Below are positions 13,040-16,679 of a DNA stretch of 64,000 nucleotides, in pieces. The notes below the pieces were generated by a model that searched no databases, was not told the DNA's origin, and saw only the letters and a list, made by a program, of their open reading frames with translations. The translations under genes were made by a program, and so were the position numbers. Location: positions 128,001 to 192,000 of IMG/VR virus record IMGVR_UViG_3300033074_000233; one strand, written 5' to 3'. Position 1 is the stretch's first letter; every line of letters starts with the position of its first letter. The DNA is from a virus (Duplodnaviria > Caudoviricetes).

Positions 13040-13348
13040 ATGACGTTTCCTATTCCCGATGACCAACTTGAAGCCGAGGCGCGCAAACTGTTCAACCCTG
13101 AACTGATCTACGCTGTCACAGGTGCCCAAGGCAAGCAACTTGGCCTTGTGATAAAGGCTTTCACCAAGGCTTGGTTCACGCCTGAACACTTCAACCACTG
13201 GTGTGTTACAGTGGGTGAGGAACTGGTACATAGCACCTTCAAGGAGTGGTGGGCTAAGGAGTCGAAAGACCCGAACAGCGAACTTATGATCGGATTCAAC
13301 ATTCACGCCGAGAACATGCGAAAAGGAACTACGAAACATGACAATTAA
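13040..13348 (+). CDS. Hypothetical protein
   Basis: 102 aa ORF overlapping the rtcB start. Confidence 0.65.
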   Translation: MTFPIPDDQLEAEARKLFNPELIYAVTGAQGKQLGLVIKAFTKAWFTPEHFNHWCVTVGEELVHSTFKEWWAKESKDPNSELMIGFNIHAENMRKGTTKHDN

Positions 13349-14531
13349 AACGACCTTTCAAGGACACGAGGTTCCTGTCTTTGCTTGGACGGAGGATATT
13401 GAATACTCCGCGATAGAACAGTTGCTGAACCTTAGCCGACTTCCTATCATGTTCAAGCACGTTGCTGCAATGCCTGACGTACACATGGGCGTAGGGGCCT
13501 CAGTAGGAACCGTCATTGCAACCAAAGGCGCTATCATTCCCTCGGCTGTTGGCGTAGACATTGGCTGTGGTATGATTGCAGCCAAGACAAACCTCAACGC
13601 GAGTGACTTACCTGACAATCTACACGCGCTGCGCCATAGCATTGAGCGTTCCATTCCACTAGGTGCAGGTGGTGCGAACTCTAAGGAGTCCGAAGACATT
13701 CGCAAGCCTTGGATGGCAAGCCTTGATGCCGACCACGAAATACTTATCGCTTTGCATCCTGAGTTGAAAACGAAGTACAATCCAAGACAGCAGTTGGGAA
13801 CGCTGGGCTCAGGCAACCACTTCATAGAGGTCTGCCTTGATACCAATGACTCCGTCTGGATAATGCTTCACTCAGGTTCGCGAGGTATCGGCAATCTTAT
13901 TGGCCGCGCTTTCATATCCAAAGCCAAGAAGTATGCTGAGGAGTTTGAGATTCACTTGCCTGATCGTGACCTTGCGTATCTGAATGACGGAACAAAGGAG
14001 TTCGCCGAGTATGTCTTTGCCTTGAACTTTGCTCAAAGGTTCGCAGAGATAAACCGTGAGGTGATGTTTAGTCGTGTTATAAAAGACCTTACTCACTTTA
14101 TGAAGCGTCCTGTAGAAATACTTGGGCACACGGTCAACTGCCATCACAACTACTCCACCATTGAGAATCACTTTGGTGAGGACGTATGGATCACCCGTAA
14201 GGGTGCGGTGAATGCAGCTAAAGGAACTTGGGGTATTATTCCTGGGTCTATGGGCACTAAGTCCTATATCGTTGAAGGCAAGGGTGAAGAAAACTCCTTC
14301 TGCTCTTGTTCGCATGGTGCAGGACGTAGAATGTCCAGAGGAGACGCAAAGCGCAAGTTTACCTTGCAGGATTTGATTGACCAGACCTCAGGTGTTGAAT
14401 GCCGAAAGGACGCTAATGTGATTGACGAAATCCCAGGTGCGTATAAAGACATTGACGTGGTAATGGAAAACCAATCTGACTTGGTAGACGTGCGCGCTGT
14501 TTTGCGTCAAGTCCTTTGTGTGAAAGGGTGA
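13338..14531 (+). CDS. rtcB: RtcB RNA ligase
   Basis: MPDVH, VGVDIGCG, LGTLGSGNHFIE, LHSGSRG, HHNY, RKGA, PGSMG, SHGAGR, DEIPGAYK. Confidence 0.97.
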   Translation: MTIKTTFQGHEVPVFAWTEDIEYSAIEQLLNLSRLPIMFKHVAAMPDVHMGVGASVGTVIATKGAIIPSAVGVDIGCGMIAAKTNLNASDLPDNLHALRHSIERSIPLGAGGANSKESEDIRKPWMASLDADHEILIALHPELKTKYNPRQQLGTLGSGNHFIEVCLDTNDSVWIMLHSGSRGIGNLIGRAFISKAKKYAEEFEIHLPDRDLAYLNDGTKEFAEYVFALNFAQRFAEINREVMFSRVIKDLTHFMKRPVEILGHTVNCHHNYSTIENHFGEDVWITRKGAVNAAKGTWGIIPGSMGTKSYIVEGKGEENSFCSCSHGAGRRMSRGDAKRKFTLQDLIDQTSGVECRKDANVIDEIPGAYKDIDVVMENQSDLVDVRAVLRQVLCVKG

Positions 14532-14534
14532 AGC

Positions 14535-15062
14535 ATGAATAAGCCGAAGGAGTATGAACGGACCGTTATCCGAATTAAGGGTCCCTTCCGAATCCTAAAC
14601 TACGAACTGAACCCTCGACCCATCTTTTTGGCTCATGGTTTGTTCAAGCGCATGATGACCAATGCTGGCGGTCGTCTTCCTCTTGCTGGTGTACCTGCAG
14701 GGGTAGACATTGATCTGGAAGTCAAACTGGATGCTGAGTTACGCTGGCGAGACAAGAAGGCCGTGAGCAAACTTGCTGACCTTGCTTCGTATCCAGTCAA
14801 GGGTCTTGCACCGGGCACTGTATTCGTAGAGGAGGCACGCAGCAACTTCCTCTTTTACGGCAACTGTTGGTGGCACCTAGACCAGACTGTGCGTAACACC
14901 GAATCTCCAACAGAGGATGAGGAGGGGCAGCAACGCTTTACCAAATCCATTGAGAAGATGGAGAAAGAGCAAAGCAGGATCGCTGGGACGAGCATTGTGC
15001 GAGAGTCCAGTGGAACATTAACCATGCGCGATAGACCCTACTATCGCAAAAACGGAGAGTAA
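14535..15062 (+). CDS. Hypothetical protein
   Basis: 175 aa ORF following rtcB. Confidence 0.65.
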   Translation: MNKPKEYERTVIRIKGPFRILNYELNPRPIFLAHGLFKRMMTNAGGRLPLAGVPAGVDIDLEVKLDAELRWRDKKAVSKLADLASYPVKGLAPGTVFVEEARSNFLFYGNCWWHLDQTVRNTESPTEDEEGQQRFTKSIEKMEKEQSRIAGTSIVRESSGTLTMRDRPYYRKNGE

Positions 15063-15063
15063 T

Positions 15064-15240
15064 ATGGACTTTGATACTTGGATGAAAGAGTGCCGGCGCT
15101 TGGCCCTTGAGAAGGGTCTGCGTATTCCTGATGACCTGGACGAGGAACAGGCCTTCTTCTGGAAGAACCAGCATGACAACGCTATGATGGCCACAGAGGC
15201 CGTGTTCTACTACCAACAGACGCTGAACGAAGGAGGCTAA
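15064..15240 (+). CDS. Small hypothetical protein (58 aa)
   Basis: GGAG RBS; too short for the ORF track. Confidence 0.55.
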   Translation: MDFDTWMKECRRLALEKGLRIPDDLDEEQAFFWKNQHDNAMMATEAVFYYQQTLNEGG

Positions 15241-15280
15241 TGGGCAATTCTGTAAAGTAAGTGTGCAAGAAGCGTAACCA

Positions 15281-15357
15281 CGGGGATTAGCACAGCCTGG
15301 TAGTGCGTCTGCTTTGGGAGCAGAAGGTCGCAGGTTCAAATCCGTCATCACCGGCCA
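15281..15357 (+). tRNA. tRNA-Pro(TGG), possibly degenerate
   Basis: TCTGC-TTTGGGA-GCAGA; one acceptor and two T-stem mismatches; CCA. Confidence 0.75.
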
Positions 15358-15364
15358 GTTCAAT

Positions 15365-15482
15365 GGGGTTGGCGAGGACGTATCTTCGCTTTGCAATGGA
15401 GAAGGACTGGACGAAATTCTCCTGAGGTGCAGCAATAGGTGTGAAAGCCTGTTGCGCGGGTTCGACTCCCGCAACCCCACCA
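15365..15482 (+). ncRNA. 118-nt tRNA-like RNA ending in ACCA
   Basis: GGGGTT/AACCCC, T arm GCGGG-TTCGACT-CCCGC, three internal helices, no canonical anticodon arm. Confidence 0.8.
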
Positions 15483-15486
15483 TTTT

Positions 15487-15519
15487 GCGCCCGTGGCTCA
15501 GATGGATAGAGCAACGACT
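15487..15519 (+). pseudogene. 5' half of a disrupted tRNA-Arg-like gene
   Basis: GCGCCCG-TG-GCTC-AGATGGATA-GAGC-A-ACGAC; A20 Arg identity element; argU-like. Confidence 0.85.
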
Positions 15520-15534
15520 ATTTATAGGCTATCT

Positions 15535-16008
15535 ATGTGGAAGATTGAGAAAATCGTCAGCAAGGGTGCCTATAACTATGCTGTAGTTAGAGATCATCCA
15601 AATGCAATCAAATACGGATACGTGTTACACCATAGGATAGTTGTAGAAAATCACCTTAAAAGACTTCTGAAAAGAAATGAAGTAGTACATCACATAAACG
15701 GAAAAAAGAAAGACAATCGCCTTAAAAACCTGAAGGTTGAGGATGCTATAACACATGGCAGACTACACGGAATTGAGCAGGGTCGCTTATGGGTAAGTCT
15801 TAGATGTCCTTGGTGCGCCTGCACTTTTCAGCGACCTAGAAACACAACTCACTTGCAGAAGCCCTCAAATCTGAAGGTAACGTGTTGTGGTCCGTCGTGT
15901 AGAGGAAATTTTTCTAGGTACGTTCAGTTGCACGGCAAAACCTTGAGGCTAAAATTAGCAGTTGATGCTAATGTTCAGAAAATATATCGAATATATCAAA
16001 AATTATAG
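15535..16008 (+). CDS. HNH (homing-type) endonuclease
   Basis: HP....GYVLHHRIV.E.HL.R.L...EVVHHINGKKKDNR..NL; C-terminal CPWC...CCGPSC. Confidence 0.9.
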   Translation: MWKIEKIVSKGAYNYAVVRDHPNAIKYGYVLHHRIVVENHLKRLLKRNEVVHHINGKKKDNRLKNLKVEDAITHGRLHGIEQGRLWVSLRCPWCACTFQRPRNTTHLQKPSNLKVTCCGPSCRGNFSRYVQLHGKTLRLKLAVDANVQKIYRIYQKL

Positions 16009-16085
16009 GGCTGTATCGGAACGGCCTTCTAAGCCGTAGTACCGTAACTGGATCAATGCGAGTTCGAGTCTCGCCAGTCCTACCA
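16007..16085 (+). tRNA. Atypical D-armless tRNA-Arg(TCT)
   Basis: AGGGCTG/CAGTCCT acceptor; ACGGC-CTTCTAA-GCCGT; GCGAG-TTCGAGT-CTCGC; ACCA; only 7 nt where the D arm should be. Confidence 0.8.
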
Positions 16086-16096
16086 AGAATTTGCGC

Positions 16097-16130
16097 TAGG
16101 TCGCTGGTTCGAGTCCAGCCGGGCGCACCA
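16097..16130 (+). pseudogene. 3' half of the disrupted tRNA
   Basis: T-AGGTC-GCTGG-TTCGAGT-CCAGC-CGGGCGC-ACCA; acceptor strand pairs 7/7 with 15487-15493. Confidence 0.85.
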
Positions 16131-16181: not shown

Positions 16182-16679
16182 ATGGGTATCAAAACGAAAG
16201 ACAAGAAGTCCACCAAGTCGAAAGGCAAGGAAGAGATCGTGAAGAAAAAGAAGAAGTCGAAGGAAGGCGAGAAAGTAGAACGCTCGTCCAAGAAAAAGAA
16301 GGGCGAGAAGAAAGCGCGCAAAGTAAAAGCCGTGATCGAAGTCAAGCCGATCAAGGAAAAACTGAGCCGCATGGGCCTTATCAATCACCTGGTTGATGAG
16401 ACCGCTGTCGAAGCCAAGTCTGTCAAGAAAGTCCTGGCTGCCCTGGAAGCCACGATCAAGGGTTCGATTATGAAGAAAGGTCTGGGCGAGTTCACCTTCC
16501 CAGGTCTGTTCAAAGTCAAAACCAAGTTCAAGCCGAAGCAGAAAGGCGGCGAGAAGAAGAAGAACCCGTTCAAGCCGGGCGAGTTCATCATCACCAAGCC
16601 GAAGCCCGCTTCGATCAAGGTCAAAATCCTGGCAATGAAGCGTTTAAAGGATGCGGCTGCCCTGCCGCCGAAAGAGTAA
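16182..16679 (+). CDS. HU family DNA-binding protein with Lys-rich N-terminal extension
   Basis: LINHLVDET....VKKVL.ALE, FTFPGLFKV, NPFKPGE..I.KPKPAS.KVK...KRLKDA. Confidence 0.85.
   Translation: MGIKTKDKKSTKSKGKEEIVKKKKKSKEGEKVERSSKKKKGEKKARKVKAVIEVKPIKEKLSRMGLINHLVDETAVEAKSVKKVLAALEATIKGSIMKKGLGEFTFPGLFKVKTKFKPKQKGGEKKKNPFKPGEFIITKPKPASIKVKILAMKRLKDAAALPPKE

Follow-up and report, generated by a model that had tools for sequence, protein, structure and literature searches.

How can an endonuclease gene come to lie within a tRNA gene, and what becomes of the tRNA that it divides? The question is raised by a locus in a 216-kb phage genome, where the two halves of one tRNA gene are separated by an HNH endonuclease gene and a second, complete tRNA gene. 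We studied this locus in a window of 64,000 nucleotides, which corresponds to bases 128001-192000 of the 215,992-nt virus record. The locus was then compared with other members of the HNH family in a set of 91 loci (designated by L numbers) drawn from viral, metagenome and genome collections; the window is included in this set and duplicates are counted. The comparison, which is one of sequences, gives good support to the view that a cassette has disrupted a resident tRNA-Arg gene and brought a substitute for it. The features of the locus are collected in Table 1.

Table 1. Coordinates of the split tRNA locus and its components (positions in the window).
Feature	Position	Strand	Basis or remark
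Repeated intergenic 10-mer, 10 genome copies	15249..15258	+	Upstream of tRNA-Pro and cassette
Orphan tRNA 5′ half	15487..15519	+	Sequence; form as in intron exon 1 and baseline Arg(UCU) genes
HNH endonuclease gene, 157 aa	15535..16008	+	Pfam HNH_3, alignment, homologues up to 64% identity
Rewired tRNA-Arg(UCU), 79 nt	16007..16085	+	Rfam, fold, family of 123 distinct sequences
Relocated D helix	16017..16044	+	16017-16019 pairs with 16042-16044; covariation
11-nt spacer	16086..16096	+	In place of resident anticodon loop and 3′ stem strand; sequence, exhaustive splice test
Orphan tRNA 3′ half	16097..16130	+	Sequence; syntenic with 3′ end of intact tRNA-Lys in L399

Anatomy of the split tRNA gene

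The initial annotation had described two outer tRNA halves that keep a 7/7 acceptor stem, a D arm, a T arm and CCA but have lost about 10 nt, and an AT-rich insert in which the TAG of an HNH reading frame overlaps a tRNA with anticodon TCT. These observations were confirmed on the sequence, with Pfam and Rfam matches for the two inserted genes. The 5′ half consists of the 7-nt acceptor strand, a 4-bp D stem with the canonical AGAGCA end, a D loop with G18-G19-A20, the 5′ anticodon strand and base 32. The 3′ half begins at base 43 and continues through the variable loop, the T arm and the acceptor 3′ strand to ACCA. All seven acceptor pairs between the halves are Watson-Crick pairs, for which the chance in a given register is (1/4)^7, or about 6 × 10−5. 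The insert is 577 nt long, and tRNA positions 33-42 (10 nt) are absent. The spacer found in their place pairs at only 2/5 positions with the 5′ anticodon-stem strand, so that no stem is possible, and an exhaustive splice test found no junction at which the exons would join to a complete tRNA. The GC content of the HNH part (15520-16006) is 39%, against 48% for the genome, and only 14 of 2156 segments of equal size are as low.

Because the outer halves carry A20, resemble the Arg(UCU) exons described below and fit the target of the HNH family, the resident tRNA was probably tRNA-Arg(UCU). The same 7-mer occurs at 15484-15490, where the outer tRNA begins, and at 16090-16096, just before the 3′ half, and is a possible insertion scar. 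An assembly error is an unlikely cause of this layout because the same layout recurs in other contigs. One of these, L079, has a spacer that resembles that of the window.

The HNH gene is the only ORF in the insert. Its product has an HNH_3 motif at residues 32-66 (Pfam, 25.0 bits against a cut-off of 24.8), followed by a Cys-rich C-terminal part, and the His and Asn residues of the motif are conserved across the aligned homologues. The best fold match of the predicted structure was I-HmuI, a weak match (E = 0.25), and a PDB search with the protein sequence returned zinc-finger matches only. A GTG at 15493 is unlikely to be the start codon, since the homologues begin at the same Met-Trp as the ORF in Table 1. 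A group I intron could be rejected, as the window has no catalytic core (P3-P8, J8/7), no terminal G and no Rfam intron match. Thus, the gene lies in neither an intron nor an intein and encodes a homing-family nuclease domain with an intact motif, as in a free-standing homing endonuclease. An integrative element using a tRNA attachment site was also rejected, because the insert has no integrase and the 3′ ends of the inner and outer tRNAs differ. ARAGORN called an intron-containing tRNA-Ile, which was discarded for want of a proper stem.

The TAG of the HNH gene (16006-16008) covers the first two bases of the inner tRNA. An HNH stop codon within the start of the partner tRNA is found in at least five other loci (L079, L105, L114, L361 and L362). 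In the window, 5′ processing of the tRNA could strip the stop codon from the message and so damp expression of the nuclease. Of the 14 Arg codons in the HNH gene, 10 are AGA or AGG, against about 22% in the long ORFs of the genome; this excess may reflect AT richness.

Several neighbouring features were recorded. The repeated 10-mer is likely to be a phage promoter. Directly 5′ of the split tRNA, at 15365-15482, lies a 118-nt structured RNA (fold z-score −3.5, no Rfam match) with an acceptor, a T arm and CCA and without a normal anticodon arm. An RtcB RNA ligase gene occupies 13338-14531 in the tRNA region and is absent from the syntenic stretch of L399. An HU-like DNA-binding protein with a lysine-rich N-terminus is encoded right 3′ of the cassette (16182-16679).

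What the slot holds in the absence of the cassette can be seen in L399, the closest relative with context, which is 94% identical over 14531-15357. It has an intact tRNA-Lys(CUU) there and no cassette, from which it follows that the slot normally holds an intact tRNA. The initial annotation had predicted an intact tRNA-Arg gene at this place, and the only close relative with context does not bear this out. Another relative, L398 (HU-like protein 96% identical), starts just after the tRNA. A pattern search with the outer 5′ half for an empty tRNA-Arg allele gave no match, searches of cultured phages gave no close relative, and searches with the neighbouring genes gave no viral relative with the slot.

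The HNH family and its tRNA-Arg(UCU) partners

The survey of the family led beyond the initial reading: most members are intron-borne, in group I introns at this tRNA site. In 57 of the 91 loci the HNH ORF is contained in a group I intron that splits tRNA-Arg(UCU) between U34 and C35, with group I core motifs 3′ of the ORF, and the anticodon stem re-forms 5/5 in the 29 entries for which both exons were parsed. The classical sites of bacterial tRNA group I introns are Leu(UAA), fMet, Ile(CAU) and Arg(CCU). The intron assignment rests on the motifs and the fit of the exons, since the Rfam intron model gives no more than a weak match (L068, 26.1 bits). Four further loci show exon 1 and an intron leader before the contig ends. 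In L074, the intron core is lost. One HNH-bearing tRNA-Arg(UCU) intron (L140) is on a 1.3-Mb contig of a Blastocatellia MAG, and so such introns are not confined to phages.

An intact Arg tRNA adjoins the ORF in 24 of the remaining 30 loci. It is a cloverleaf in 18 of them (one with anticodon CCU) and has a rewired form, described in the next section, in six. The initial annotation had asked whether the homologues recur beside a D-armless tRNA-Arg(TCT); the link to Arg(UCU) held, but it is not specific to that type, as the cloverleaf is three times as frequent as the rewired form (18 versus 6). Among these 24 intron-less loci, L079 and L123 are nested like the window. The cargo of L079 is a cloverleaf and its outer acceptor pairs 7/7 with one G-U; the cargo of L123 is rewired and its outer acceptor is degenerate. 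The orphan 5′ half alone is retained in L101, L105, L114, L124 and L130, and the 3′ half is lost in most related loci.

Phylogenetic trees of the HNH proteins were poorly resolved. Neither a single clade of intron-less HNHs (AU test, p = 0.23) nor one of the three nested cases (p = 0.49) was rejected, and the trees settle neither the direction of change (cassette from intron or the reverse) nor the number of origins. The C-terminal tail motif was unreliable for labelling proteins without context, since P0005, P0023, P0049 and P0076 are intron-borne and do not have it.

We then analyzed the end of the D stem, where the partner tRNAs differ from ordinary genes. Among ordinary viral Arg(UCU) genes, a control set chosen by its variable-loop pattern, 59 of the 62 complete ones end the stem in AGAGCR, as do 37 of 42 intron exons, but the motif was found in none of the 18 cloverleaf partner tRNAs, which have many different variants instead. 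The difference was highly significant against both the intron exons (Fisher’s test, p = 4 × 10−11) and the controls (p = 4 × 10−15), although these values assume independence and are inflated by kinship. The canonical motif is kept in the 5′ half of the window and in most orphan halves. AGAGCR is not an absolute requirement, because five intron exons also lack it.

The D-stem change of the partner tRNAs fits an escape from cleavage. The simplest reading of these sequences is that the HNH nuclease recognises a site extending from the D stem as far as the anticodon, and that a carrier must break, interrupt or recode this site. No intact canonical site was found in the 91 loci (232 kb) or in this genome, and the motif is taken here as the putative target. 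In L365 (1290-1400), an HNH homologue precedes a tRNA that has a canonical D stem and carries a short hairpin inserted in its anticodon loop; this is possibly a fourth way of breaking the target.

A tRNA-Arg(UCU) with a relocated D helix

The inner tRNA has a 7-bp acceptor, the anticodon TCT at 16028-16030, a T arm and an encoded CCA. It scores 40.7 bits with the Rfam tRNA model and is missed by ARAGORN. Only 7 nt lie between its acceptor and anticodon arms, and thus a canonical D hairpin is absent there. The initial annotation had called it D-armless. Covariation tells otherwise: the D arm is relocated rather than missing, forming a helix that encloses the anticodon arm, with a D-loop-like segment next to it at 16045-16052.

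We collected 123 distinct sequences of this class. The strands of the helix are the three bases after U8-A9 and the three bases beyond the anticodon arm. Pairing in this register was observed at 346 of 369 positions, against 200.6 ± 9.6 in 10,000 shuffles (maximum 238), and slid registers gave 209 and 165 pairs. Pairs 1 and 2 occur in all four Watson-Crick types, and pair 3 is C-A or G-G in two subfamilies. On average, 6.8 of 7 acceptor pairs and 4.9 of 5 T-stem pairs are formed. The D-loop-like segment after the 3′ helix strand contains G-G-A, and an A-U precedes the T stem. The helix is nested and makes no pseudoknot. We infer that the strands of the D arm have been swapped, so that base 9 would be followed by what is normally the 3′ D strand, with the 5′ D strand and D loop placed beyond the anticodon arm.

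In E. coli, A20, C35 and U36 are identity elements of tRNA-Arg. The rewired class keeps the equivalent of A20 together with C35 and U36; its UCU anticodon was fixed by the search pattern and is no independent result. The class was found in 51 contigs by a strict pattern and in more than 119 by a loose one, and four cultured phages (SOVA965, DC31, Atu_ph04 and Slicko01) carry it. It is not bound to the present HNH family, which stands beside rewired tRNAs in 5 of about 120 loci. Because orphan canonical 5′ halves precede rewired tRNAs in six other loci, the rewired tRNA appears to act repeatedly as a replacement.

Three further loci show variants of this class. In L344, the 3′ acceptor strand of the rewired tRNA forms 7/7 pairs with the orphan 5′ half that precedes it and 6/7 with its own 5′ strand; this replacement tRNA may have captured the 3′ end of the resident. 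L028 has a second rewired tRNA in tandem, with anticodon CCU, about 80 nt past the first. L127 (1690-1790) has, beside a frameshifted HNH gene, a rewired tRNA-Arg(UCU) that is more divergent and whose swapped strands are longer.

Origin of the arrangement and its meaning

We consider it probable that the locus is an intron-less homing cassette, in which an HNH gene and a target-free tRNA-Arg(UCU) were inserted together into a resident phage tRNA. The nuclease would target the D-stem/anticodon region of ordinary tRNA-Arg(UCU) genes and be accompanied by a tRNA-Arg(UCU) of its own, from whose sequence the target is missing and which would resist cleavage. By landing in the anticodon arm of the resident, the pair would destroy both the target site and the gene; the cargo tRNA, if charged, would restore AGA decoding, and the outer halves would be remnants. 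The initial annotation had suggested such homing. Its core is well supported by the comparison, as the family tracks Arg(UCU), L079 and L123 repeat the nesting, and the D stems of the partners are altered; an Arg allele was not seen in the one close relative with context, and the family is not specifically linked to the D-armless type.

The same arrangement might be left by a decayed mobile intron, if a rewired tRNA-Arg had later replaced the ribozyme core and part of exon 2; the cassette would then be a salvaged remnant, with no need for homing as a unit. Introns carry the nearest HNH genes (L064 at 64% identity, and L062 closest on the tree), the ORF starts 16 nt past tRNA position 31, near the 18-20 nt of short intron leaders, and L074 shows that a core can be lost. 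However, the leader is not significantly intron-like, since 57 of 222 leaders of this genome score as well, and neither a P7 or J8/7 remnant nor an intron-overlapping C-terminal tail was found. The 24 recurrent intron-less loci with recoded tRNAs would also be unexpected from a one-off decay, and we regard this history as unlikely.

It is very improbable, in our judgement, that no targeting is involved, that is, that HNH genes merely pile up in tRNA clusters, nesting results from illegitimate recombination and the odd D stems are drift of phage tRNAs. Unrelated HNH genes do flank rewired tRNAs (L001, L002, L011, L019 and L317), rewired tRNAs follow an orphan 5′ half in L269 and L344, where this HNH is absent, and the slot varies between relatives. 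But the HNH family is nearly always found with Arg(UCU), its intron-borne members at a single fixed position, and intron exons from similar contigs keep the canonical D stem while the partners do not. Hardly any credence can be given to outer halves that function as RNA, whether as a 644-nt tmRNA-like scaffold, which the initial annotation had offered as an alternative, or as a precursor that is spliced or ligated to a tRNA, for instance by the phage RtcB encoded in the same tRNA region. Folding of 15487-16130 predicts the outer acceptor pairs with a probability of 0.79-0.96, but it leaves the inner tRNA unformed (acceptor probability 0.01). ARAGORN found no tmRNA, Rfam gave neither a tmRNA nor another match to such an RNA, and the outer pair 3-70 is G-C. 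No junction rebuilds the anticodon arm; the best gives 3/5 pairs with the full 5′ strand and an 8-nt variable loop. Moreover, the 3′ half is gone from most related loci.

The homing cassette can be compared with several known systems. T4 SegB acts on a tRNA motif, and tRNA genes next to it are spread through its activity (PMC2330249). Like the nuclease of the window, it is free-standing in a phage tRNA cluster, and the cassette would work in the manner of such intronless homing (PMC2330249). However, SegB is a GIY-YIG enzyme that recognises the T-loop motif and lies between intact genes, whereas here an HNH gene lies in a broken tRNA gene, accompanied by a complete gene for a substitute. Collaborative homing brings a free-standing nuclease and an intron together at a shared site (PMC3984707, PMC2988022); this model fits the present family, which occurs both in and out of introns at the same tRNA position. 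Aeh1 mobE in nrdA and T4 mobA in gene 60 are HNH genes inserted without introns into critical parts of genes (PMC2988022). There the pieces reassemble as protein, as shown for nrdA, whereas in the window no tRNA forms from the pieces and a second gene would restore the function. Bacterial tRNA genes have group I introns, including the endonuclease-bearing one of tRNA-fMet (Bonocora and Shub 2001, as cited in PMC3984707). They share with the window a nuclease that is, or would be, aimed at the anticodon region, and the closest homologues of the window's nuclease sit in such introns, but the window has no ribozyme, and the introns of its relatives are HNH-bearing and lie in Arg(UCU) at 34/35.

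PMC7609411 and PMC5389517 describe other departures from the standard cloverleaf, namely mitochondrial D-armless tRNA-Ser and the 8/4 and 9/3 allo-tRNAs, respectively. The inner tRNA differs from both in that its acceptor branch is 7/5 and its D-stem and D-loop elements are retained but have changed places, and a term search of the two papers found no swapped-D form. In the literature covered, which takes in few subscription journals, we found no description of a nuclease that splits a tRNA and brings a replacement, nor of the rewired fold.

A broader proposal stands at even odds in our estimation. The HNH family would save its target gene interchangeably by an intron, a recoded cloverleaf or a rewired tRNA, and the rewired tRNA would work with a non-cloverleaf path and owe its spread partly to escape from the nuclease.

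If our reading of the locus is true, a selfish nuclease can invade a tRNA gene without splicing, by breaking the gene and bringing a resistant spare. Intron-less homing with an unusual tRNA cargo is a known mode in a new form, and the rewired cargo tRNA, if functional, is most likely the part that is new in kind. The occurrence of the same HNH family in group I introns at the same position provides a test set for the collaborative-homing model of the origin of mobile introns. The cargo also points to a large class of phage tRNAs, for the most part unannotated, whose core is rewired and which ARAGORN missed here; as cultured phages carry such tRNAs, their function can be tested.
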